Source: a virus (lineage: Duplodnaviria; Heunggongvirae; Uroviricota; Caudoviricetes). Taken from it: a stretch of DNA of 11,520 bases. Numbering within the stretch: the first letter of the stretch is position 1; each line of letters begins with the position of its first letter. The position numbers and the translations under genes were made by a program. The notes beneath the pieces were generated by a model. It did no database searches. It saw nothing but the letters and a program-made list of their open reading frames with translations, and was not told the DNA's origin. This document shows positions 1 through 11,520 of the stretch, one piece after another. The stretch lies in IMG/VR virus record IMGVR_UViG_2671180727_000025. One strand, given 5' to 3'.

Positions 1-17
1 AGGGGAGCATATGACAC

Positions 18-47
18 ATAAAACAAAGGCGACCGGGGGCGGTCGCC
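18..47 (-). terminator. Rho-independent terminator for the leftward regulator gene
   Basis: Perfect 8-bp GC-rich inverted repeat GGCGACCG (28-35) / CGGTCGCC (40-47) with a 4-nt loop; on the - strand it is followed by TTTGTTTTAT (complement of 18-27). Lies about 90 nt downstream of the stop of the - strand CDS 136..438. Confidence 0.55.
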
Positions 48-135
48 AATGGGAAAACACTAAACATAAGCCCGAACATCATAGCGATTTGCTGGCTGGT
101 GGGCAATGTGATCAGTGTGGTGGTTTGCTGGTGGA

Positions 136-438
136 TTATTCCGCTTCTTTGGCCTTGCGACGCTGGAGTTCTTCGCGTGCAACGGTGACAAGTTGCCCGA
201 TTTCTTCCGCTGCTTTGATGCCGATTTGTTCGACCTTAGCCAGAGCATCCAGTGAAGACACAAGGGGATTTTCTCCGCTGCCTTCTGCCTGGCGGCGTGC
301 TATTTCTCCGCGCATGGCGGTTACGATAAATCCTGCATTGCTCTCGCCGTCCAGCTTAACGGATTCCATGCCTTGCATGACATCGTGAGGGACTCTGAGC
401 GTTGTCATTTGAGATTTTGCGTTTTTGTATACGGACAT
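136..438 (-). CDS. Putative ribbon-helix-helix (CopG/Arc-like) transcriptional regulator, divergently transcribed
   Basis: 100-aa ORF with a GGTGA Shine-Dalgarno 6 nt upstream of the ATG (read on the - strand). The N-terminus (TTLRVPHDVMQGMESV...FIVTAMRGEIARR) fits a beta-strand/helix/helix pattern by eye. It sits directly beside the operator repeat array and opposite the rightward operon. Fold assignment is inference, no search was run. Confidence 0.45.
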   Translation of the reverse strand: MSVYKNAKSQMTTLRVPHDVMQGMESVKLDGESNAGFIVTAMRGEIARRQAEGSGENPLVSSLDALAKVEQIGIKAAEEIGQLVTVAREELQRRKAKEAE

Positions 439-456
439 AATTAATCACCAGTTTAT

Positions 457-560
457 TGTGTGTATATCACTATACAGTAAAGTGAGATATAAAAAAACTT
501 GAAATGTATATCACATCAATGTAACGTGTATCTCACATGATGATTATGTGTATCTCATGT
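457..560. promoter_or_regulatory. Divergent promoter/operator region with periodic TGTAT(A/C)TCAC repeats
   Basis: AT-rich intergenic region between divergent genes. Direct copies at 461-470 (TGTATATCAC), 505-514 (TGTATATCAC), 527-536 (TGTATCTCAC) and 549-558 (TGTATCTCAT), plus an inverted copy at 482-491 (GTGAGATATA). Centres are about 22 bp apart. The first site is part of a 16-bp palindrome, TGTATA-TCAC-TATACA (461-476). Confidence 0.6.
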
Positions 561-635
561 ACGAAAAGACGAAACCCCGCAGTGCTGGAACACATACGGG
601 GCTTCTAACCACAAACACTATAGAGAGGTAAATTT

Positions 636-833
636 ATGGTTGCCGTAAATCATACTCCACGACTAGCACACACACAAACGGCCTTTGTGTGGCGTTTTCT
701 GGCCCTGAGTGCCGGAGAATCTCAAATCATCCACGTAACCGCCTGGACGGAACGCGAAGCGCGTAACCGTTGCCCGTCCGGTTGTGTTGCTGTATTTGCC
801 GCCCGTATTCGTCAGGAGGTGCGCCATGATTAA
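636..833 (+). CDS. Hypothetical small protein, first gene of the rightward operon (possibly Icd-like, tentative)
   Basis: 65-aa ORF with ATG at 636 and a GAGAGG Shine-Dalgarno at 623-628 (7-nt spacing). Its stop overlaps the next gene's start. The motif ...FVWRF...VAVFAARI... is loosely reminiscent of Icd-like small proteins of P4-type elements; this is recollection only, not a search result. Confidence 0.4.
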   Translation: MVAVNHTPRLAHTQTAFVWRFLALSAGESQIIHVTAWTEREARNRCPSGCVAVFAARIRQEVRHD

Positions 834-1038
834 TCTGTCACTTACTGACCTTAACCGCATTCAGTTTCGTGAGAAATTCACAGGGCAGCTACTGGTCAAT
901 GTGGATAAAGGTCGCGTGGTGTGTAATTACCACTTACCAGATGAAGCAATTGTCGCCACAAGGGAATCATTACAGGAAATCACAAAACGTGCCGGAATGA
1001 TTAACACGAATATTCAGGGGATGCTTTATGCACAATAA
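826..1038 (+). CDS. Hypothetical protein
   Basis: 70-aa ORF starting at the internal ATG 826 of track ORF 784..1038, preceded by AGGAGG (814-819, 6-nt spacing). Overlaps the upstream stop by 8 nt, suggesting translational coupling. Confidence 0.5.
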   Translation: MINLSLTDLNRIQFREKFTGQLLVNVDKGRVVCNYHLPDEAIVATRESLQEITKRAGMINTNIQGMLYAQ

Positions 1039-1288
1039 AACCACACCGGACGCAGCCGCCGAAGCCATCAAAACGCTGATGCACGCGCTGATTGATATTT
1101 CTGTTATCGCGGACAGGGCACATAAGCACGCCACCAGCGAAACAGAATATGCCGGGGCTTTCGTTCCTCATTCGCTGGCGGTTATGCAACTTAGTGCTGA
1201 TATGGCGCTGAATGAGGCCAAAGCTATCCTGATTGCTGATTGTGAAAATGGGGGGGGGTTATGCGTGATGATCGTTTTTATTCCCTGA
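1028..1288 (+). CDS. Hypothetical protein
   Basis: 86-aa ORF with ATG at 1028 and an AGGGG Shine-Dalgarno (1016-1020). Its 3' end reads through a G9 homopolymer (1250-1258) and overlaps the next gene by 28 nt. Confidence 0.45.
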   Translation: MHNKTTPDAAAEAIKTLMHALIDISVIADRAHKHATSETEYAGAFVPHSLAVMQLSADMALNEAKAILIADCENGGGLCVMIVFIP

Positions 1289-1494
1289 AACAAGAATTTT
1301 CCGGCGTATCTGATGATGCGGCTGATGCGCTTTCGTCAATGCCAGAACTTATTAGAGCGGCTTTTTTCTTACTTTCCACGAAAGAATATAAATCAACGGG
1401 ACTTGATGTACTGAATATCACCGCCGATTATGCGGAATATGTGGCAGAGGCGCGTTACAGAAGAAAATTTCCTGAGGATGTAAGCCATGCGTGA
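1261..1494 (+). CDS. Hypothetical protein
   Basis: 77-aa ORF with ATG at 1261 immediately after the G-rich tract, which can serve as its Shine-Dalgarno. Its stop overlaps the next start (ATGCGTGA). Confidence 0.45.
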   Translation: MRDDRFYSLKQEFSGVSDDAADALSSMPELIRAAFFLLSTKEYKSTGLDVLNITADYAEYVAEARYRRKFPEDVSHA

Positions 1495-1720
1495 TATTTA
1501 TCTTGAAACAATAGACCGCGCATCACTTGCACTTTCTCACAGTGAAAACATGATGGAAATATTGCGGATGTGCCTTGAATCCTTTGGCGATAATGAACGT
1601 AATGCAAAAAAAACGCGGATTATTACATCATTAATAACGCTTCTTGAGCCTGTAATAAATGAGTTGCAGGAAATAGAGACATTGCACGACAGATATAACG
1701 AACAGCACACCGGAGAATAA
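1487..1720 (+). CDS. Hypothetical protein
   Basis: 77-aa ORF with ATG at 1487 and a GAGGA Shine-Dalgarno (1474-1478). Overlaps the upstream stop. Confidence 0.45.
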   Translation: MRDIYLETIDRASLALSHSENMMEILRMCLESFGDNERNAKKTRIITSLITLLEPVINELQEIETLHDRYNEQHTGE

Positions 1721-1725
1721 AAATA

Positions 1726-2025
1726 ATGAAACTTAAATATTCTGGCTTAACTGCCAGTGGCAACACTCACCCTAAATTTACGCGCGGTGATATTTACCGC
1801 GACCAGTACGGCGGCACGGTAATGATTAAGGGCGTGGCGGGACGGTGCGTAACTTACCGCCGTGAAGGTTACGAATATGATTGCGTGATGCCTGTTTATC
1901 AGTTCCGGCGTGATTTTTCTCTGGTACAGACCGCGCCGCATAACGTGCCCACCAGCAACGCCAGGGCACGGGCAAACCTCCAGAAGCTGAAAACCATGAT
2001 TAACGGATTCAGGGGTAAAAAATGA
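1726..2025 (+). CDS. Hypothetical protein
   Basis: 99-aa ORF with ATG at 1726 and a GGAGAA Shine-Dalgarno (1712-1717). Its stop overlaps the start of the helicase gene (ATGA at 2022-2025). Confidence 0.5.
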   Translation: MKLKYSGLTASGNTHPKFTRGDIYRDQYGGTVMIKGVAGRCVTYRREGYEYDCVMPVYQFRRDFSLVQTAPHNVPTSNARARANLQKLKTMINGFRGKK

Positions 2026-3431
2026 AACTGGCACCGAACGTAAAACTATTACCGAAAGACAAATACACCGATGCGATTATTTTTGCGGGTATTGATGCTC
2101 ATTCATTCGCAGAGCATTACATCATTGCACAGGCCAAAAAAGCAGGCGATCCAGTCCCTCCCGTTTATCTGGGGCGTTATCAGTTAAGCGAACTGGATAA
2201 CCTCCAGATTGTTGATGATGGGCGATACAGGGCGACGGTGATACGCGCCGGAAATATTGAAGAGCCGCAGCTGTTAACCATCGCCACGAAACTGGCGATC
2301 GCCGGAGTCCAGGAGGCGCGGCTACTTTCTGAAAATTTCGAATTGCTGGAGGAATGGAGCGACCAGCTTCCACGGCTTAGGGAGGCATGGGAACGCGGGG
2401 AAAGCCTGGTCATGAAAAAAATCCCCCAGCGAAAAACCACGCTACCGATGAGCGTTGGATCTACCGGATACGACACACAGCTTGATTACGTGGTAAAGGG
2501 GATTATTCCGGCATCGTCGCTTTGCAGCATATACGGGGCGAGCGGTTCCTATAAATCATTCCTTGCCGGATCGTGGGCGTGTCACGTTTCCACGGGCCGC
2601 CAGTGGGGAGGCCGCAGGGTGGCGCATGGCGCTGTTCTCTATGTGGTTGGTGAAGGCGGTATCGGCGTTCCGCGTCGTGTAAAAGCCTGGGAGGTTGTGC
2701 ACGGTGAGCAGGTGAAAAATCTGTATCTGGTAAACCGTCCCATCTTTCCGGCTGTCCCGCTTGATGTTGATGAACTGGTTATTGCTGCCAGTCAGGTGGA
2801 GAGGGAAACGGGTAAACCTGTTCGCATGATTATTCTGGACACGCTGGCGCGCTGCTTTGGCGGCAATGATGAAAATGACTCCCGCGACATGGGGGCGTTT
2901 ATCCGTGGGTGTGACGAACTGAAACGACGCACAGGGGCCACGGTGCTGGTGGTTCACCATTCCGGCAAGGATGAGACGAAAGGCGCGCGCGGTTCCAGTG
3001 CATTTCGTGCTTCGCTGGATGCTGAATACCGGATACGCAGGGAGGACGCAGGAAGCGAAGCGCTGGTTATCTCATGCACCAAAATGAAGGACGCGGAGGA
3101 ACTCAAAGAGGCTGCCTATGATTTGCGGGTAGTGGAGCTTTTTACCGACGCTGACGGGGAGTTAATCACGTCGCTGGTGGTGGTGGATAAGCCGCGCCCT
3201 CCCGTTGAACTGGAGCGCATCGAAGAGGCAGGCAACAAGACGGAAAACCATACCGCGCTATGGGGGTGTATCCGTTCACGCACACAGAACGGCGACAAGT
3301 GCACGATCCCGCTGTTACGTGATGACATGAAAAAACTGGGGTACGAAATAAAGCACTTCCGGCGCTGGCTGGGCAAGCTGGAAAAAGACGGCGTTATCTA
3401 TGTTGACGGCGATGATGTAGGGCCACTGTAA
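2022..3431 (+). CDS. Replication initiator/helicase, RepA-like AAA_25 (RecA-fold) ATPase
   Basis: 469-aa ORF. Walker A-like IYGASGSYKS, Walker B-like VRMIILDTLARCFGG, and a downstream VLVVHHSGKD motif are typical of RepA/DnaB-like AAA_25 helicases of plasmids and PICI/satellite Rep proteins. No primase zinc-finger or TOPRIM motif recognised by eye. An iteron array begins 1 nt after the stop. Confidence 0.8.
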   Translation: MKLAPNVKLLPKDKYTDAIIFAGIDAHSFAEHYIIAQAKKAGDPVPPVYLGRYQLSELDNLQIVDDGRYRATVIRAGNIEEPQLLTIATKLAIAGVQEARLLSENFELLEEWSDQLPRLREAWERGESLVMKKIPQRKTTLPMSVGSTGYDTQLDYVVKGIIPASSLCSIYGASGSYKSFLAGSWACHVSTGRQWGGRRVAHGAVLYVVGEGGIGVPRRVKAWEVVHGEQVKNLYLVNRPIFPAVPLDVDELVIAASQVERETGKPVRMIILDTLARCFGGNDENDSRDMGAFIRGCDELKRRTGATVLVVHHSGKDETKGARGSSAFRASLDAEYRIRREDAGSEALVISCTKMKDAEELKEAAYDLRVVELFTDADGELITSLVVVDKPRPPVELERIEEAGNKTENHTALWGCIRSRTQNGDKCTIPLLRDDMKKLGYEIKHFRRWLGKLEKDGVIYVDGDDVGPL

Positions 3432-4618: not shown

Positions 4619-4891
4619 ATGGCACATGACCGCATAGCGGAGGAACTCGAGGCAAAAGGCTTTTACCGGAGGGCGGCGGCGCGATGGGGTGAAGTCATGC
4701 AACTGGTGGAGACAGACAAGGAACGGCATCAGGTTACGATGCGACGGCTGGAATGTTCCAGGAAGGCACAGAGGCCACCGGAGCCGCCGGATAACTTCGG
4801 AGACCTGAGAAAGGCAGTCGATCGCACTTATGCTGAAATGGGTATGGATGGTGTAAGCGATGAAATATGGCGTAATTACACAGACAGCTAA
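4619..4891 (+). CDS. PerC-family transcriptional regulator (tentative)
   Basis: 90-aa ORF from the internal ATG 4619 of track ORF 4499..4891, with a GAGGGGG Shine-Dalgarno (4607-4613). The N-terminal motif AEELEAKGFYRRAAARWGEVM resembles the conserved PerC/Pch N-terminus as I recall it. Followed by a strong terminator. Confidence 0.5.
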   Translation: MAHDRIAEELEAKGFYRRAAARWGEVMQLVETDKERHQVTMRRLECSRKAQRPPEPPDNFGDLRKAVDRTYAEMGMDGVSDEIWRNYTDS

Positions 4892-4929: not shown

Positions 4930-5178
4930 TAAATTATTTGTTCGTGGTTGTTCCACGTTGTTCACTGAGCGGATCGGCATATTTTACCCGAACTGAATCA
5001 TGATTATTCTCGCCCGTGGTGCCAGGACGCTGGGGCCACTTTCCCGCCTGTTAATGTGCTCGCCAATATTCATTACCAGGCGGGAAAACGATCGGTGCGA
5101 TTACTGATTTCCTTATGAAAAACGGTTGAGTGTTTGCCGCGTCCTGGAGTTCCTTACTTAACCCCAGGACTTTTTTTT
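4930..5178 (+). promoter_or_regulatory. Leader/control region of the head-morphogenesis operon
   Basis: About 250 bp of non-coding DNA between a strong terminator and the capsid gene. Contains tandem GTTGTTC(C)AC repeats (4947-4965), a candidate sigma70-like promoter (TTGTTC 4958-4963, 16-nt spacer, TATTTT 4980-4985), a perfect 9-bp inverted repeat TCCCGCCTG (5042-5050) / CAGGCGGGA (5077-5085), and a hairpin GTCCTGG (5141-5147) / CCAGGAC (5164-5170) followed by T8 (5171-5178) abutting the capsid ATG. Confidence 0.4.
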
Positions 5179-6336
5179 ATGCAGAGAATAATCGAATTAC
5201 GCCAGCAGAAAACCGCCATTAAAAATCAGATGCGCGACATGCTGGAGAACGCGGAAAAAGAAAACCGCAGTCTTAACGATGCTGAGGGCGCAAAATTTGA
5301 CGAATTACGCGCTAAAGCTGAATCCCTCGATAAAGACATTTCCCGCCTTGAAGCCATTGCAGACGAAGAGCGCAGCAAGCCAGGTAAAAGCAGCCAGACC
5401 ACTGACCCCGCAGAACTACGCAGCTACATTCTGACAGGTGAAACCCGCGCATTAAGTACAGGCGTTCCCGCTGATGGTGGTTATACCGTTATCCCCGAAC
5501 TGAACACCGAAATCATGCGAATGCTGGCGGATGAATCCACCATGCGCCGCATCTGTACCGTGAAAAAAATCAGCAGCAACGAGTTTAAGCAGCTTGTTTC
5601 CGCTGGCGGTGCGACCGTTAACCACGGTGAAGAGGGTAAGGCACGCGAACAGACCAGCACCCCGCAGATTAACGAGGTGAGCATTAAGCTGTATCCGGTC
5701 TATGCGTACCCGCGCACCACACAGGAAATCGTGGATTTTTCCGATGTGGACATCCTTTCATGGCTGACGGGTGAGATTGGCGACACCTTCACGGAAACCG
5801 AAGAAAGCGATCTGGTTGTGGGCGACGGTGACAAAAAAGCAAAAGGTTTTTTATCCGTACCCCGTGCAGAGAAGAACGACAAAGAGCGTGATTTTGGTAC
5901 GTTGCAGGTAATTAAACCTTCCGAATCTCTGGCGTGGACATCTGCGGACCCGCTGATCGACCTGAAATTTGCATTACGTAAAAAATACCGCAAAAACGCG
6001 GTCTGGGTGGTTAACTCCACGACGGCGGCAAAACTCCAGAAGGTGAAGAACGCGAACGGTGATTACATCTGGCGTGACCGTTTACAGGCGGGTGATCCTG
6101 ATACGTTGCTGGGCCTTCCGGTCGAATATCTGGAGTTTATGCCTGATAACGTTATTGCCCTGGGTGACTTCAAACGCGGTTACTACATTGTTGATCACGA
6201 AACAGGTGTTCGCACCAGACCGGACAACCTCACAGAGCCGGGCTTCATCAAAATTTTCACGCAGAAATATTTAGGCGGTGGCGTGGTGGATTCGAACGCG
6301 ATCAAGATTCTGGAACTGCCACAGGACGACGATTAA
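5179..6336 (+). CDS. Major capsid protein, HK97 family, with N-terminal coiled-coil delta/scaffold domain
   Basis: 385 aa from ATG 5179; the track ORF starts at an upstream in-frame TTG 5134. N-terminal 90 aa are charged and coiled-coil-like (ELRQQKTAIKNQMRDMLENAEKE...). The C-terminal body has HK97-fold-like motifs (VVGDGDKKAKGFLS, YIWRDRLQAGDPDTLLGLPVEYLEFMP). No clear Shine-Dalgarno for either start. Confidence 0.88.
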   Translation: MQRIIELRQQKTAIKNQMRDMLENAEKENRSLNDAEGAKFDELRAKAESLDKDISRLEAIADEERSKPGKSSQTTDPAELRSYILTGETRALSTGVPADGGYTVIPELNTEIMRMLADESTMRRICTVKKISSNEFKQLVSAGGATVNHGEEGKAREQTSTPQINEVSIKLYPVYAYPRTTQEIVDFSDVDILSWLTGEIGDTFTETEESDLVVGDGDKKAKGFLSVPRAEKNDKERDFGTLQVIKPSESLAWTSADPLIDLKFALRKKYRKNAVWVVNSTTAAKLQKVKNANGDYIWRDRLQAGDPDTLLGLPVEYLEFMPDNVIALGDFKRGYYIVDHETGVRTRPDNLTEPGFIKIFTQKYLGGGVVDSNAIKILELPQDDD

Positions 6337-6346
6337 CAGCATACAG

Positions 6347-6375
6347 AAGGGGCTTAAAAGCCCCTTTAGTGTTTT
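6347..6375 (+). terminator. Intra-operon terminator-like hairpin between capsid and protease genes
   Basis: Stem AAGGGGC (6347-6353) / GCCCCTT (6360-6366) with a 6-nt loop, followed by TAGTGTTTT. Located 10 nt after the capsid stop. Confidence 0.6.
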
Positions 6376-6390
6376 ATGGGTGAAAAAATT

Positions 6391-6948
6391 ATGAAGAGTA
6401 TGGAAATCCGGTCATCGGAAATCACCACCAGCGGCAGCAACACGCTTACAGGCTACGTTGTTCGCTGGGATAAGCTTTCAGAACTGTTATGGGGTGAGTT
6501 TTACGAAAAATTCCAGCGGGGGGCGTTTACTGAATGGCTTGCGGCGGGTAATGACGTTCGCGGCCTGTATGAGCATGACCACAGTATGTTACTGGGGCGC
6601 ACCCGTTCCGGCACGCTGAAACTGGAAGAGGATGAAACAGGGTTACGCTTTGAACTGACCCCACCGGATACCAGTACAGGGCGCGACGTTATCGAACTGG
6701 TTAAACGTGGTGATATATCCGGCATGAGCTTTGGCTTTCGCTCCCGTAAGGATGTATGGGATACCACAACAGATCCATGCGTGCGCACCGTGCTGGTGGC
6801 GGAACTGTACGAAATTACCGTTACATCGGTACCGGCTTACCCCGATTCCGGCGTGGAGCTGGCCCGCCGTTCCCTGTATGAGCAGCACCCCGAAAAAATG
6901 CCGCGTGCGGATAATCGCCGCTGGTGGGTGGATTTAGCGGGGGTGTGA
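6391..6948 (+). CDS. Prohead serine protease, HK97 family
   Basis: Track ORF 6376..6948; preferred start is ATG 6391 (MKSMEIRS...), with GGGTGA 7 nt upstream. N-terminal ...GYVVRWDKLSE..., a candidate catalytic His (EHDHSMLLGRT) and Ser (DISGMSFGF) match the HK97 prohead protease pattern. Confidence 0.85.
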   Translation: MKSMEIRSSEITTSGSNTLTGYVVRWDKLSELLWGEFYEKFQRGAFTEWLAAGNDVRGLYEHDHSMLLGRTRSGTLKLEEDETGLRFELTPPDTSTGRDVIELVKRGDISGMSFGFRSRKDVWDTTTDPCVRTVLVAELYEITVTSVPAYPDSGVELARRSLYEQHPEKMPRADNRRWWVDLAGV

Positions 6949-6949
6949 T

Positions 6950-8161
6950 ATGTGGCCTTTCAGAAGAAAAAAAGAGCAGCGCAGCATGACGCTTGATGAA
7001 TTTATGGCGCTGGCTGGCACATCGAACACGGGGGCGGGTGAGTACGTATCATCGGGGACAGCGGAATCACTGCCTGCCGTCATGAACGCCGTTACGGTCA
7101 TCTCTGAGGCGGTGGCTACTATGCCATGCTACCTGTACCTGGTACGCAATGAGAAGGGGAAGGAGGCCCGCGAGTGGCTTGATTCTCATCCGGTCGATCA
7201 CATCCTCAACGAGCGCCCGAACGCATGGCAAACCCCCTACCAGTTTAAGCGAATGATGATCCGCCACTGCCTGTTAAACGGTAATGCTTATGCGGTTATT
7301 CAGTGGGGGCGTGATGGTTTTCCGGCGGCTTTACATCCTTACCCGCCGCAGTCGGTGAACGTGGAGCAGACAGGCGAACACAACTGGCGCTATTGCATCA
7401 CTGACGCCTACACCGGAAACACCCACAACTATTTACCGTGGGAAGTACTTCACCTTCGTTACTCCACGGATGACGGCTTTATGGGGCGCTCACCTGTAAC
7501 CATCTGCCGCGAATCGCTGGGGCTTGGGCTGGCCCAACAACGCCACGGCGCGAGCGTGATGCGTGATGGCATGATGGCGGCAGGGGTTATCACGTCAGGC
7601 GAATGGCTGGACGGCGTGAAGGGCAAACAGGCATTAGCCGCACTGGAACGCTACAAAGGGGCCAGAAACGCCGGAAAAACGCCCATCCTTGAAGGGGGGA
7701 TGAGCTATCAGCAGCTGGGCATGAGTAATCAGGATGCTGAATGGCTGGCCTCCCGTCGCTTTACCATTGAAGACATCGCCCGAATGTTCAACGTCTCGCC
7801 GATTTTTTTGCAGGAATACAGCAACAGCACCTACAGCAATTTCAGCGAGGCAAGCCGCGCATTTCTCACCATGACGATGCGCCCGTGGCTGGCGAACTTT
7901 GAGCAGCAGATAAAAAACGCCCTGCTGGTGGCCTCGCCTGTACCTGGTATCCGGTATCAGGTGGAGTTTGACAGCGCGGACCTGTTACGGGCCACACCTG
8001 GCGAACGCTTTGCCACCTATGAGCGCGGCATCAAATCCGGCGTTATGTGCCCGAACGAAGCCCGCGAACGTGAAGGACTGTCACCGCGTGATGGTGGTGA
8101 TGAGTTCAGTCAGGCATGGAAACAGGAAGTAAAAATCAGCGAGGGAGAAAAACCGGAATGA
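6950..8161 (+). CDS. Portal protein, HK97 family
   Basis: 403-aa ORF with ATG at 6950, 1 nt after the protease stop, and a GGGGGTG Shine-Dalgarno. Size and the conserved region around HPVDHILNERPNAWQTPYQF...LLNGNAYAV are consistent with HK97-type portals. Placement next to protease and capsid supports the call. Confidence 0.85.
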   Translation: MWPFRRKKEQRSMTLDEFMALAGTSNTGAGEYVSSGTAESLPAVMNAVTVISEAVATMPCYLYLVRNEKGKEAREWLDSHPVDHILNERPNAWQTPYQFKRMMIRHCLLNGNAYAVIQWGRDGFPAALHPYPPQSVNVEQTGEHNWRYCITDAYTGNTHNYLPWEVLHLRYSTDDGFMGRSPVTICRESLGLGLAQQRHGASVMRDGMMAAGVITSGEWLDGVKGKQALAALERYKGARNAGKTPILEGGMSYQQLGMSNQDAEWLASRRFTIEDIARMFNVSPIFLQEYSNSTYSNFSEASRAFLTMTMRPWLANFEQQIKNALLVASPVPGIRYQVEFDSADLLRATPGERFATYERGIKSGVMCPNEAREREGLSPRDGGDEFSQAWKQEVKISEGEKPE

Positions 8162-8496
8162 ACATAGGGCGACTGCGTGACAGGATAACGATTCAGACCC
8201 TGAAACAGACCAGAGCCATGACGGGCGAAATACTCGAAACGTGGGAGGACGGTCACACACTCTGGGCAAGCGTGAACATGATCAGCAGCAAGGAGGCCAT
8301 TTCATCGGGCGCAGAGCTGGCGATTGGTACCGTAAGGATCTGGATACGGTACCGGAAGGACATCAACGCCACCAGCCGGATAAAGGTCAGTACGGGGCCG
8401 CTGGCGGGGCGTGTACTGAATATCATCGGGCAGCCGTTGCCGGATGTCGCCAGGACACGCCTTGAAATTCTTTGTCGTGAGGGCGCGGAAAAATGA
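8158..8496 (+). CDS. Head closure / head-tail adaptor protein (SPP1 gp16-like)
   Basis: 112 aa from ATG 8158, which overlaps the portal stop (ATGA), with a GAGGGAG Shine-Dalgarno at 8141-8147. N-terminal MNIGRLRDRITIQ and the IRYRKDI core are characteristic of this family. The track ORF start 8116 lies inside the portal gene and is rejected. Confidence 0.7.
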   Translation: MNIGRLRDRITIQTLKQTRAMTGEILETWEDGHTLWASVNMISSKEAISSGAELAIGTVRIWIRYRKDINATSRIKVSTGPLAGRVLNIIGQPLPDVARTRLEILCREGAEK

Positions 8497-8789
8497 CAGA
8501 AGAACTTATCACCCTGGAAGAAGTGAAACTCCATTGCCGTATCGATGGAGACGAGGAAGACCAGTTAATCAGCGGATACATTGCCGCATCGCTTGAGGCG
8601 TGCCAGATACACATAGGCAGGCGCTTTGATGACGGGCTGGAGTTCACGCCAGCCATAAAGATTGGCTGCATGATGTTTATCGCTCACCTGTATGAGAATC
8701 GCCAGATTGTCGCGGATAACGCAAAAACACGCGTACCCATGACGATTGGCGCACTCTGGACGGCTTACCGTGATGTGGGGGTGTACTGA
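8493..8789 (+). CDS. gp6-like head-tail connector protein
   Basis: 98-aa ORF with ATG overlapping the upstream stop (ATGA). N-terminal ITLEEVKLHCRIDGDEEDQLISGYIAASLEACQ matches the typical gp6-like connector N-terminus. Confidence 0.7.
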   Translation: MTEELITLEEVKLHCRIDGDEEDQLISGYIAASLEACQIHIGRRFDDGLEFTPAIKIGCMMFIAHLYENRQIVADNAKTRVPMTIGALWTAYRDVGVY

Positions 8790-9229
8790 TGCCGTGGCAA
8801 CCATTAAGACGATGCACAGAACCAGGCTGTAACAGGCGCGTTAAATCCGGCAAGTGTGAGGAGCACAGGCGGGCGGCATGGCGTGCAGAGGATGCCAGAC
8901 GAGGACACCGCCGCGCGCGTGGATATTCCAGACAGTGGGACAAATACCGCGCCATGTATCTGAGTAAAAACCCGTTATGCGTGCGATGCCTTGAGAAGGG
9001 GATATATACGCCCGCCGTGGTGGTGGATCACATTATCCCGATTAATGGCGGTGATGATGTTCTCTTCTGGCCCGAATGGAACCATCAACCATTGTGTCAG
9101 GCGTGTCATAACCAGAAAACGAAATGGCTTGATCCGGCAACAAAAAGCAAGCGTGCCGCAGGTGGATTTCGTGAAGAGGAAGAACGGGCCGCTAACCGCA
9201 ATAACTGGATGTATGACGCTGATGAATGA
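8789..9229 (+). CDS. HNH endonuclease, terminase-associated (HK97 gp74-like)
   Basis: 146-aa ORF with ATG overlapping the upstream stop. Cys pairs (CTEPGCN, CVRC, CQACHNQ) and the DHIIPINGG...NHQPLCQACHNQKT HNH motif. Sits next to the terminase genes, as in cos-type HK97-like packaging modules. Confidence 0.88.
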   Translation: MPWQPLRRCTEPGCNRRVKSGKCEEHRRAAWRAEDARRGHRRARGYSRQWDKYRAMYLSKNPLCVRCLEKGIYTPAVVVDHIIPINGGDDVLFWPEWNHQPLCQACHNQKTKWLDPATKSKRAAGGFREEEERAANRNNWMYDADE

Positions 9230-9395
9230 TCGGGAACAAAACCGCCTTATCCGTGGACTTATAAGGCAGCGTGACGCATGGAAGACACAGGAAACAGGGC
9301 ATAAAGATAAAGCGTCAGGACGCGCAGAACGCATCACAGCGAAGCGATTAACCGACCGTGACCGCGAGGTTATGGAATGTTTCCGCAATCGCTGA
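9213..9395 (+). CDS. Possible small basic protein (hypothetical, weakly supported)
   Basis: 60-aa ORF (MTLMNDREQNRLIRGLIRQRDAWK...) from ATG 9213, overlapping the HNH 3' end in another frame. No convincing Shine-Dalgarno. The region could instead be non-coding packaging-site DNA. Confidence 0.25.
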   Translation: MTLMNDREQNRLIRGLIRQRDAWKTQETGHKDKASGRAERITAKRLTDRDREVMECFRNR

Positions 9396-9518
9396 TGAGG
9401 CTGTATGACGGGGTGGGGGGCGTTTTCAGGACAAACCCGACCCCGCCGGGCACCGAACGCCTCCTCAAATTTTTATGCACGGGAATTTTTTGAAAAATAA
9501 TCTGGCGAAAAAATAAGC
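9396..9518. other. Candidate packaging (cos) region upstream of the small terminase gene
   Basis: Non-coding stretch between the HNH and small terminase genes containing a G-rich tract (GGGGTGGGGGG, 9410-9420) and an imperfect GC-rich inverted repeat (9407-9418 versus 9436-9447). In HK97-like cos phages the cos site lies between the HNH gene and terS. Assignment is positional inference only. Confidence 0.2.
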
Positions 9519-9875
9519 ATGTCAAGACCACCGAAAGCCCCCGCCTACCTGGATGATATCGCCGTGAAGCAGTGGCGGGAAAAATCTAGGCAGCTTGCGG
9601 AACGGGGAGACCTGACCCCCGCCGACTGGAGCAATCTGGAACTGTATTGTGTCAACTACTCCATTTACCGGAAAGCCGTTGCAGACCTTGCGGCGCGCGG
9701 GTTCAGCATTGTTAACAGTCAGGGCGGTGAGAGCAGAAACCCCGCATTAAGCGCAAAATCCGACGCTGAAAGAGTGATGATAAAAATGGCCTCCTTGCTC
9801 GGTTTTGACCCGATAAGCCGCCGTAAAAATCCACCGGAAACAGAAGAAGAGGACGAGCTTGACCGCCTGGAATAA
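9519..9875 (+). CDS. Terminase small subunit, P27 family
   Basis: 118-aa ORF. The conserved pattern ...W..LELYCVNYSIYRKAVADL...NP...LLGFDPISRRK matches P27-type small terminases. Lies directly upstream of, and overlapping, the large terminase gene. Confidence 0.8.
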   Translation: MSRPPKAPAYLDDIAVKQWREKSRQLAERGDLTPADWSNLELYCVNYSIYRKAVADLAARGFSIVNSQGGESRNPALSAKSDAERVMIKMASLLGFDPISRRKNPPETEEEDELDRLE

Positions 9876-11520
9876 GTACGCAGAAGACGTAAAAACGGGC
9901 AAAATTCCGGCCTGTAAACGGCTGAAACAGGCCGTTAAACGGTACTTTTCGGACCTTGAAAGCCCCCTTTACACGTTCGATCGTGAGGTTGTGGAGCGGT
10001 TTATTGCCTTTTCCAGGGTGTGCCCGCACGTAAAAGGGCCGATGCGTGGCAGATCCATTGAGCTGGAGCCGTGGCAGCAGTTCGCCTTTGCGTGCATCCT
10101 CGGCTTTAAGGTTAAGGCCACCGGACGGCGCAAATACACGAGCGCCTTTATCGAAGTGCCGCGCAAAAATGCGAAATCCACGACCGCCGCGATTCTGGCT
10201 AACTGGTTTCTGATTATGGAGAACGGGCAGCAGGATATTTACACCGCAGCGGTGAGCCGTGACCAGGCGCGGATCGTTTTTGATGATGCGCGTCAGATGT
10301 GCCTTTTATCCCGACCGTTACGCAGGCGGGTGAATATTCAGGCCCACAAGGTGATGCACCCGAAAAGCAACAGCCTGTTAAAGCCGCTGGCAGCAAAAGC
10401 GGCAACCATCGAGGGCACAAACCCAAGCCTTTCCATCGTGGACGAATACCACCTACACCCCGATAACGGCGTTTATTCCGCGCTTGAGCTGGGGATGGGC
10501 GCACGTCCCGAAGGGCTGTTATTTGCCATTACCACATCGGGCAGTAACGTCGTTTCAGCCTGTAAGCAGCACTATGATTATTGCTGCCAGATCCTGGACG
10601 GCGAAGAGGTCAACGATTCAATTTTTGTGCTGATTTACGAGCTGGACGACGAAAACGAGGTTGATGATCCGGCGATGTGGATAAAGGCTAACCCTAACAT
10701 CGATGTTTCCGTGGATCGTGAAAAACTGGCCTCAACCATCCAGAAAGCGCGGGGTATTCCGTCGCAATGGGTGGAGATGATGACAAAGCGATTTAATATC
10801 TGGTGCCAGGGGGCTACCCCGTGGATGGGTAACGGCGCATGGGCTGAGTGTGCCGGAACGTACACGGAGGAAGATTTACACGGGCAGGAGTGTTACGCGG
10901 GGCTGGACTTATCATCAACCAGCGATATTTCCAGCGTGTGCTATGCCTTTCCGGTCGGTAAAAATATCATGCTGGTTTCCCGTCATTATCTGCCGGAGTT
11001 CCAGCTACAGAACCCCGCCAATAAAAACCGCGCTGTCTATCGCCAGTGGGCTAAAGCGGGCTGGATACGCACAACGCCAGGTGACTGCATTGATTACGAC
11101 CGGATCAGAGATGACATCATGCAGGATGCGGAGAAATTTAATATCAGGCTGGTGGGCTTTGATACGTGGAACGCCACGCATCTCAGGACGCAATTACAGG
11201 GGGCTGGTTTTGAGGTGGAGCCGTTCCCGCAAACCTACCTCAGATTCAGTCCGGCGGCGAAATCGTTCGAAGTTTTTGTTAACCGCAGGGTGATTGTGCA
11301 TCGTGGCGATCCGGTGTTGTCCTGGTCGATGAGTAACGTCGTGATGCAGAGTGACGCGAACGCCAATATCAAGCCGAACAAGAAAAAATCACCGAACAAG
11401 ATAGACCCGAGCGTGGCGGCGCTGATGGCGTTTGGTACATTCCAGGCAGAGCATGAGGATTTTGCTTTTGATATAAGCGACAGCCACCGCCAGAAACTGG
11501 AAGAATTTAGCGGGGTGTAA
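9859..11520 (+). CDS. Terminase large subunit (Terminase_1-type)
   Basis: 553-aa ORF. ATPase motifs (VPRKNAKST Walker A-like, SIVDEYH Walker B-like) and a C-terminal nuclease region. Apparent TTG start at 9859 overlaps the small-terminase 3' end by 17 nt, preceded by GAGGA (9849-9853); the first in-frame ATG is about 60 codons in and would truncate the conserved N-terminus. The stop is the last codon of the window. Confidence 0.9.
   Translation: MTAWNKYAEDVKTGKIPACKRLKQAVKRYFSDLESPLYTFDREVVERFIAFSRVCPHVKGPMRGRSIELEPWQQFAFACILGFKVKATGRRKYTSAFIEVPRKNAKSTTAAILANWFLIMENGQQDIYTAAVSRDQARIVFDDARQMCLLSRPLRRRVNIQAHKVMHPKSNSLLKPLAAKAATIEGTNPSLSIVDEYHLHPDNGVYSALELGMGARPEGLLFAITTSGSNVVSACKQHYDYCCQILDGEEVNDSIFVLIYELDDENEVDDPAMWIKANPNIDVSVDREKLASTIQKARGIPSQWVEMMTKRFNIWCQGATPWMGNGAWAECAGTYTEEDLHGQECYAGLDLSSTSDISSVCYAFPVGKNIMLVSRHYLPEFQLQNPANKNRAVYRQWAKAGWIRTTPGDCIDYDRIRDDIMQDAEKFNIRLVGFDTWNATHLRTQLQGAGFEVEPFPQTYLRFSPAAKSFEVFVNRRVIVHRGDPVLSWSMSNVVMQSDANANIKPNKKKSPNKIDPSVAALMAFGTFQAEHEDFAFDISDSHRQKLEEFSGV

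Follow-up and report, generated by a model that had tools for sequence, protein, structure and literature searches.

The early replication operon of a capsid-forming satellite: an Icd-like leader beneath a predicted antisense RNA, a gene divided at a G tract, and a probable RgdR orthologue

The 11,520-nt DNA analysed here (the window), from the IMG/VR virus record IMGVR_UViG_2671180727_000025, carries six small plus-strand open reading frames (ORF1 to ORF6) immediately upstream of a replicase gene, which an earlier note had described as a satellite operon of small genes with no assignable motif. Our analysis favors, with a probability of about 0.6, that they constitute the early, replication-proximal operon of a capsid-forming phage-inducible chromosomal island (cf-PICI), made up of an Icd-like leader, an optional ORF2, a two-part gene read as ORF3 and ORF4, ORF5, the regulator RgdR (ORF6) and the RepA replicase, and that this operon would be gated by an antisense RNA predicted over the start of ORF1. 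The kind of element is already well known; what adds interest is the predicted antisense RNA, previously unannotated, and a hypervariable G-tract junction between ORF3 and ORF4.

The six ORFs and rep as one operon

All six plus-strand ORFs are present at the coordinates given in the earlier note, each with a Shine-Dalgarno (SD) sequence (Table 1). SD-like purine runs lie 5-8 nt before the ATG in all of them but ORF4, for which a run of guanines ends 2 nt before the ATG. For ORF2, the mechanical ORF list starts at a GTG at position 784, and the ATG at 826 is the start used by RefSeq in relatives. Consecutive genes are closely packed: ORF1 and ORF2 overlap by 8 nt at ATGATTAA, ORF2 and ORF3 by 11 nt, ORF3 and ORF4 by 28 nt (1261/1288), and ORF4 and ORF5 by 8 nt at ATGCGTGA; a 5-nt gap separates ORF5 from ORF6, which itself overlaps the 469-aa replicase gene by 4 nt (ATGA). 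The overlapping stop/start junctions described before are therefore confirmed for most pairs, except that 1261/1288 turns out to be a frameshift at a run of nine guanines, within what EcCIEDL933-type islands carry as one 154-aa gene, rather than ordinary coupling. On the plus strand between 380 and 3600, a consensus scan gave no sigma-70-like promoter, and only two terminator-like sites were found there, a weak hairpin within ORF1 and another within rep. The six ORFs and rep thus probably form one co-transcribed, translationally coupled unit.

Coding signal was measured on related DNA comprising 80 loci around RepA relatives (one genome per species), 5 annotated E. coli loci, and 139 loci from IMG/VR and metagenomes. 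No distinct full-length variant (5-55 variants per ORF) contains an internal stop. In the annotated frame, the ratio of nonsynonymous to synonymous polymorphism (pN/pS) is 0.26, 0.35, 0.25, 0.37, 0.37, and 0.42 for ORF1 to ORF6, compared with 0.5-1.7 in the two other frames; rep gives 0.11. ORF1 to ORF6 are real genes under purifying selection, somewhat relaxed relative to rep. The possibility that the ORFs are spurious was rejected on these grounds, since selection acts in the annotated frame only and internal stops are absent; the coding signal on which the earlier note had staked its proposal is therefore there, with pN/pS of 0.25-0.42 for the six ORFs.

A capsid-forming satellite of the EcCIEDL933 type

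Megablast matched the window region in 1,361 of 5,426 complete E. coli genomes. The closest match, an E. coli locus with 95.8% identity (L001), is an island of about 14 kb between rcnR and thiM. Its left part is annotated, in order, as tyrosine integrase, hypothetical protein, helix-turn-helix (HTH) regulator, truncated Icd-like remnant, and a YlcI/YnfO-family gene on the opposite strand. The operon follows with an Icd-like protein, four hypothetical proteins, DUF4222, and RepA helicase; two further hypothetical proteins, single-stranded DNA-binding protein, and a PerC-family regulator come next. The right part comprises major capsid, prohead protease, portal, head closure, connector, HNH, TerS, and TerL, and the annotation of this island, which ends at thiM, contains no tail or lysis genes. 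In the window, the ORFs at 5134-11520 likewise correspond to capsid, protease, portal, connectors, HNH, TerS, and TerL, the packaging module of a cf-PICI. The left arm expected of a PICI comprises integrase, alpA-type regulator, and replicase, in an island of about 15 kb. The window begins downstream of the integrase and HTH genes; in L001, a tyrosine integrase and an HTH regulator come before the operon.

The cf-PICI papers describe this layout for EcCIEDL933 and show there both helper induction and transfer with helper tails. The resemblance extends to gene order, to the packaging module, and to the Icd-like, ORF2, ORF3-4, ORF5, RgdR, and RepA proteins as found in O157:H7 islands; the classical PICIs EcCICFT073 and EcCIED1a are grouped with EcCIEDL933 as closest relatives. 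Judged by gene content and order, the window is a cf-PICI satellite of the EcCIEDL933 type from E. coli. The satellite reading of the earlier note is thereby upheld by the L001 gene order, as is its placement of the operon between switch and replication gene: the co-directional small genes lie between the divergent YlcI/YnfO-family regulator and RepA. Two differences from EcCIEDL933 stand out. The window and L001 carry the divergent YlcI/YnfO-family gene and a truncated Icd-like remnant upstream of the operon, which in L001 lie between the HTH gene and the operon, and ORF3-4 is split at a run of nine guanines (G9) in the window, whereas it is fused (G7) in EcCIEDL933. In the O157:H7 islands, the same operon (95% DNA identity) adjoins the integrase and HTH genes. 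EcCIEDL933 is probably O-island 51 (OI-51, CP-933C) of E. coli O157:H7, because the two agree in size (14.9-15.4 kb), in their genes (rgdR and a PerC homologue), and in their CFT073 and ED1a relatives; an explicit statement of this equivalence was not found in the literature examined.

The operon itself is modular, being found in E. coli upstream of at least five replicase types (RepA, DNA primase, DUF5906, DUF927, and P4-type primase).

A predicted antisense RNA over the start of ORF1

A scan of the window against Rfam returned one match at E ≤ 1, to SymR (RF01809), covering the full length of the model on the minus strand at 568-641 (E 0.0064) with a score of 32.2 bits, below the family's gathering value of 61. 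The minus strand from 641 to 556 is predicted to fold into two hairpins (-31.6 kcal/mol, z -5.9). The loop of the first displays CCUCUC, an anti-SD sequence to ORF1, and the second, rich in GC, runs into a U-rich tail, as in an intrinsic terminator. The plus strand of the same region folds less well (-18.6 kcal/mol, z -2.0), and the abundance of G-U pairs likewise points to the minus strand as the folded one. As in SymR, the predicted RNA would lie opposite the SD and start codon of its target and be transcribed from a promoter inside the target coding sequence.

We built a covariance model, R1, from five variants of the element. Across 95 related sources it locates the RNA 93 times; the five annotated, operon-oriented E. 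coli loci have the element on the opposite strand. In other genera, 78 RepA-bearing loci contain 36 such places, every one of them (36/36) on the strand opposite rep. Nearly all of these copies lie about 0.7-1.8 kb upstream of rep, with one second copy, in a single locus, at about 2.8 kb. At least 10 genera beyond E. coli are represented, including Xenorhabdus, Citrobacter, Leclercia, Kluyvera, Kosakonia, Pantoea, and Rosenbergiella. In the six cross-genus loci with a readable leader, the 5' end of the RNA overlaps the ATG of an Icd-like leader and variable small ORFs come next.

Pairing is preserved in two alignments, where 88-90% of cells are paired compared with 38-51% when partners are slid. 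The numbers of pairs changed on both sides, 14 and 13, exceed those in shuffles (6.7 and 8.7, with 0 of 500 shuffles as high), although both alignments were fitted to our own R1 model, which favors structure. The best-supported helix is the terminator hairpin, in which 10 of 15 pairs covary. A -10 box (TATGAT, TATAAT, or TATGCT, often with a TGn extension) occurs at the same distance in four divergent variants of the ORF1 N-terminus. The x-H-T ... HTQT N-terminal peptide conserved in Icd-like and Ash-like proteins may accordingly reflect a constraint imposed at the DNA level by this promoter.

The region could instead be a leftward terminator or insulator, or a structure of the operon 5' untranslated region and nothing else. 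That the terminator hairpin is the best-supported helix, and that second copies are found elsewhere in some islands, would suit such an interpretation. It is made less likely by the -10 box, held at a fixed distance of 7 nt in four divergent contexts, and by the absence upstream of any minus-strand gene whose transcript could be terminated. The element is also present in an island that has no divergent ylcI gene (L083), its G-U pairs and far better minus-strand fold speak against a structure on the plus strand, and the whole RNA matches the SymR model from end to end. We therefore regard a terminator or untranslated-region structure as unlikely and retain the antisense RNA as the preferred interpretation. 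No account of the RNA turned up in the O157:H7 Hfq-CLIP paper or its supplements.

Two further observations concern this region. On the plus strand, 671-700 holds a terminator-like hairpin (CACACAAACGGCCTTTGTGTG then GCGTTTTCTG) within codons 12-22 of ORF1, which might serve as a translation-sensitive attenuator when ORF1 goes untranslated; the same DNA is also the -35 region of the predicted antisense promoter and codes for the conserved HTQT peptide. Second copies of the RNA sit further upstream in some related loci (2202-2287 in L002, 752-837 in L084, 702-786 in L085, 8956-9042 in L126, and 8370-8454 in L152), facing the beginning of a different ORF (MAIKEHSLLFIHTQT...); RNA and leader together thus appear to be a portable cassette.

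ORF1 and ORF6 belong to recognizable families

The earlier note saw no assignable motif in any of the six proteins. This holds for ORF2 to ORF5 in searches of Pfam, NCBIfam, PADLOC, and PDB sequences, and was overturned for the first and last genes. ORF1 matches the NCBIfam family NF033153 (phage_ICD_like) over residues 17-60 with 64.9 bits against a cut-off of 25 (E 4.9e-18), and its RefSeq relatives are named 'host cell division inhibitor Icd-like protein'. ORF1 is on this match an Icd-like protein, and the leader ORF of the operon. We found no report of Icd-like proteins in satellites in our literature searches.

ORF6 matches the whole 53-position profile of Pfam PF13973 (DUF4222) with 82.1 bits against a cut-off of 27 (E 2.1e-23). 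An RGD motif occupies residues 20-22. Compared over 99 aa with the O157:H7 protein encoded at the RgdR position, ORF6 shows 95% identity and five substitutions. From the shared length, domain, motif, and place directly upstream of the replicase, we infer that ORF6 is the orthologue of RgdR (ECs1581). Flockhart et al. 2012 (PMC3378721) showed RgdR to be an activator of the LEE1 promoter and of type III secretion and a repressor of motility, with non-specific DNA binding. Its activity is decided by single residues, and since single substitutions alter it (PMC3378721), the same activity cannot be assumed for the ORF6 allele. The RGD motif is not conserved in the DUF4222 homologues of Citrobacter or Xenorhabdus.

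PDB sequences gave no significant match for either ORF1 or ORF6; a likeness of the DUF4222 profile to CstF-77 (E 0.047) was non-significant and was discarded. Because ORF1 and ORF6 can be assigned and the orthologue of ORF6 has been characterized experimentally, the operon is less unknown than first thought.

ORF3 and ORF4 as two halves of one gene, divided at a G tract

ORF3 and ORF4 align with successive parts of a single 154-aa family, PHROG 2512, whose positions 1-77 correspond to residues 1-77 of ORF3 and positions 78-154 to ORF4. Other PHROG matches (5146 for ORF3, 24341 for ORF4) are to families of unknown function. In the O157:H7 annotation, the two are fused as a single 154-aa protein. 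AlphaFold2, run on an alignment of 56 sequences, produced a model of ORF3-4 (pLDDT 78.6, predicted TM-score 0.47) with helices at residues 9-37 and 39-73, a glycine linker, and three helices at 80-146; a model from a 10-sequence alignment (pLDDT 51) was set aside. As modeled, ORF3 is the N-terminal half of one protein, a long helical hairpin, and ORF4 its three-helix C-terminal half. Among 1.84 billion representative proteins, the family forms only 60 clusters; most represent the N-half or the C-half by itself, a few are fused, and distant stand-alone C-half relatives start at the ORF4 methionine. ORF3, ORF4, and ORF5 were also considered as paralogues, all being 77-aa units; this was rejected, as BLASTP gave no alignment among them.

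The only difference at the junction is the length of the G run: the window and two other E. coli strains have G9, a further strain has G8, and O157:H7 has G7. Across 145 related loci, the tract is G8 in 58, G7 in 34, G9 in 34, G10 in 5, and G11 in 2, with a few interrupted variants. Its consequences differ with length: with G7 and G10 the halves are joined in frame (ENGG(G)VMRDD), G8 makes ORF3 end in ATGCGTGA, the same overlap as at the ORF4/ORF5 coupling junction, and G9 adds nine out-of-frame residues to ORF3 as a hydrophobic tail. Past its ATG, which was part of the search pattern in this test, the ORF4 frame is open for at least 49 and mostly 73-77 codons in every tract-length class. Since the G run can act as an SD sequence for the ORF4 ATG, both halves may be made at any tract length, and in our reading the junction tolerates frameshifts. 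The count of six ORFs given in the earlier note accordingly describes one allelic state of an operon of five or six ORFs, since many relatives have ORF3 and ORF4 joined and 82 of 141 loci do without ORF2.

Homopolymer runs are a common site of sequencing indel errors, and the split might be such an artefact or the mark of a decaying pseudogene. The break does fall in a G9 run, and the prototype island carries the fused 154-aa form. Yet G7, G8, and G9 each recur in dozens of independent isolate and metagenome assemblies. Control homopolymers of 6-8 nt from these loci hardly vary (T6 in 69/69, A6 in 37/37, A8 in 8/9), on which basis generic assembly noise was rejected as the source of the variation. 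Decay is likewise hard to reconcile with an ORF4 frame that is open in all tract classes, preceded by an SD-like G run, and under a pN/pS of 0.37, with the recreation of the ATGCGTGA coupling junction by G8, or with distant relatives that are mostly stand-alone halves. We consider an artefact or pseudogene very unlikely.

More plausible, though still doubtful, is that the tract works as a genuine phase-variation switch, or that programmed slippage, transcriptional or ribosomal, takes place there, altering ORF3-4 activity and making the satellite population heterogeneous. The tract varies as in a phase-variable (contingency) locus: in 8 of the 18 haplotype groups with more than one member, the tract takes more than one length although its 458-nt flanks are identical. 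Each of the three frames is common, and the fused and split forms differ in linkage, the G9 form gaining its hydrophobic 9-aa tail. On the other hand, both halves are probably made in every state, leaving no obvious ON and OFF. A simple ON/OFF switch is unlikely because the ORF4 frame is open in all three tract classes and the SD-like G run precedes its ATG. Moreover, seven sampled O157:H7-type matches all align over 1392 nt, as does one O157:H7 locus that carries G7, and the tract therefore appears stable in that lineage. We accordingly keep to a two-part gene whose halves would both be made, fused or separate, as the preferred interpretation.

As a separate observation, the database proteins P0128, P0143, and P0151 fuse the Icd-like protein with ORF3, or an ORF2-like protein with ORF4. 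By sequence, they indicate that some assemblies also have read-through or frameshifts at other junctions of the operon.

ORF2, ORF5 and the specificity of the small genes to satellites

ORF2 and the acidic ORF5 match PHROG 340 (E 1e-23) and PHROG 2196 (E 8e-32), both of unknown function. ORF2 is an optional cassette: among 141 related loci, ORF3 directly follows ORF1 in 82, about 26 have the window-type ORF2, and 32 have a different insert of about 200 nt. These figures come from direct measurement of the gap, single-linkage clustering of ORFs having collapsed since frameshift fusions join unrelated families. From its sequence, ORF5 is probably helical. A similarity of ORF5 to Rop, an RNA-binding helical hairpin protein, in PDB sequences (E 0.11) was non-significant and was discarded. 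It is noted here solely as the same operon begins with a predicted antisense RNA, and is not evidence.

Tblastn of ORF2, ORF3-4, and ORF5 against 50,697 GenBank phage genomes gave no match, and ORF1 and ORF6 had one match each, in satellite-like records of 16.5 kb (an induced prophage) and 8.6 kb. The set is thus satellite-specific, being absent from phage genomes save these two small records. In RepA-bearing islands of other genera, tblastn did not detect ORF2 to ORF5; the architecture of small overlapping ORFs is nonetheless found there.

The satellite P4 has the gene order epsilon-orf151-alpha, with the small genes upstream of the replicase. By analogy, the small ORFs could serve helper-directed functions (derepression, capsid or packaging interference, helper exploitation), a possibility with which their position agrees. 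So do their absence from phage genomes and the presence or absence of ORF2 and rapid turnover of ORF2 to ORF5 between genera, which would fit an arms race. However, the small ORFs have no homology to a known derepressor or interference protein and no PADLOC match, nor did any sequence similarity to epsilon or orf151 emerge. The cf-PICI papers describe alpA-dependent induction and elements that build their own capsids, so that no redirection of capsid size is needed. The sole characterized member of the set, RgdR, acts on host genes. A helper-directed role therefore seems unlikely, and a replication-proximal operon gated at its leader remains our preferred reading.

Proposed mechanism and how it is weighed

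We propose that the antisense RNA, presumably constitutive, would pair with the leader and block translation of ORF1, and that the resulting loss of translational coupling, or polarity, would keep the downstream genes and rep silent, in the manner of c4 RNA on icd-ant in phage P1 and of SymR on symE. Strong helper-triggered, AlpA-dependent transcription would then outrun the antisense RNA. Once expressed, the Icd-like protein might arrest host division and RgdR might alter host transcription, as in its published activity. The helical ORF3/4 and ORF5 proteins would most likely act through protein binding, and the ORF3 and ORF4 halves would be made at any tract length, fused with G7 and G10 or separate with G8 and G9. 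The joint proposal, of an undescribed SymR-like RNA immunity gate on the early operon of Enterobacterales PICIs and cf-PICIs together with a hypermutable G tract that alternates ORF3-4 between fused and two-chain forms within populations, is more tentative than the operon reading itself and falls somewhat short of even odds.

Several points weigh against this account, in addition to the sub-threshold SymR score and the R1-fitted alignments given above. The antisense RNA, its promoter, and its effect on ORF1 and rep are predictions, and the Rfam scan of the window gave no C4 family match at E ≤ 1. The Icd-like label of ORF1 rests on a hidden Markov model match; a tblastn search with ORF1 against the 50,697 phage genomes did not detect P1 icd at E<1e-3, so any relationship to P1 Icd is remote. 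The published phenotypes of RgdR concern host virulence genes rather than the satellite life cycle (PMC3378721). Part of the variation in G-tract length could be homopolymer sequencing error. Of the profile and structure searches proposed in the earlier note, those with profiles yielded families for ORF1 and ORF6; with the ORF3-4 model, fold searches returned generic helical hairpins only. For ORF2 to ORF5, family searches offer no functional support, with no significant match in the four collections named above and only families of unknown function among the PHROGs.

Comparison with known regulatory systems

Three known systems resemble parts of this arrangement. In the immI region of phage P1, the downstream genes reportedly depend on the icd leader. 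PMC8198154, citing Citron & Schuster 1990 and Riedel et al. 1993, describes a c4 antisense RNA that acts at icd and controls the downstream ant genes (ant1/2), and a P1 Icd protein that inhibits host division. The window shares with P1 an operon headed by an Icd-family ORF and, by prediction, an antisense RNA at its translation start. C4 is processed from the same strand and has short complementary sites, whereas the RNA predicted in the window would come from the opposite strand, with complementarity throughout; the downstream cargo is an antirepressor in P1, and small ORFs and a replicase in the window.

In P4, small genes of the left operon are co-transcribed with the alpha primase-helicase, and immunity by the CI RNA acts on the leader of the operon. 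Small genes upstream of a satellite replicase, and a small RNA at the leader (predicted in the window), are common to both. The CI RNA, however, is released by cleavage of the same transcript and acts by premature termination, unlike the opposite-strand RNA predicted here, and the replicase is of the alpha primase-helicase type in P4 and of the RepA helicase type in the window.

In layout, the predicted RNA resembles SymR, a small RNA opposite the 5' end of symE with its promoter inside the target coding sequence (Kawano et al. 2007, PMC1891008). Like SymR, the window RNA would cover the SD and start codon, form two stem-loops ending in a terminator, and start from a promoter within its target. 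The targets differ: SymE is an AbrB-fold protein encoded by a solitary toxin gene, and the target in the window is an Icd-like protein in a satellite operon.

Cf-PICIs are a recently recognized and very mobile class of satellites, on which published work has centered on the packaging module and alpA. The small genes between alpA and rep have been left uncharacterized save rgdR, studied only as a virulence regulator of enterohaemorrhagic E. coli. If RgdR is part of a satellite early replication operon, its virulence phenotype would be linked to the induction state of the satellite. The predicted antisense RNA offers a testable account of the silent replication operon and of the need for a threshold signal. 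For annotation, the G tract is a warning that two hypothetical proteins are one gene, and it provides a natural allelic series of fused and split forms.

Neighboring features

Table 1. Features of the window discussed in the text, with coordinates and strand; the antisense RNA and its -10 box are predictions.
Feature	Position	Strand	Length	Remarks
Icd-like/Ash-type second ORF, N-terminal remnant	11-133			annotated as truncated pseudogene in L001
YlcI/YnfO-family gene	136-438	-		divergent regulator
Predicted cis-antisense small RNA	556-642	-	about 85 nt	spans ORF1 SD (623-628) and ATG (636-638)
ORF1	636-833	+	65 aa	SD GAGAGG (623-628)
Predicted -10 box of antisense promoter	649-654	-		TATGAT; 7 nt upstream of RNA 5' end; within ORF1 codons 5-7 (N-H-T)
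ORF2	826-1038	+	70 aa from ATG	SD AGGAGG
ORF3	1028-1288	+	86 aa	SD AGGGGA
G9 homopolymer	1250-1258	+		ORF3/ORF4 junction
ORF4	1261-1494	+	77 aa	SD is the G run itself
ORF5	1487-1720	+	77 aa	SD TGAGGA
ORF6	1726-2025	+	99 aa	SD CGGAGAA
RepA-family helicase (AAA_25)	2022-3431	+	469 aa	Pfam AAA_25, E 2.9e-43; PHROG 2850; RefSeq 'helicase RepA family protein'

The Icd-like remnant at the window's left end suggests that an older alpA-icd junction took up a YlcI module together with a fresh leader. An operator-like motif (GTATATCAC / GTATCTCAC) recurs four to five times at 459-560, one copy being inverted, in the interval from the YlcI/YnfO-family gene to the antisense RNA terminator; this array is probably bound by the divergent regulator. 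Downstream of the operon, a PerC-family regulator at about 4619-4891, the position of pchE in OI-51, lies on the same satellite as RgdR; both protein families are tied to how the LEE pathogenicity island (locus of enterocyte effacement) is regulated.

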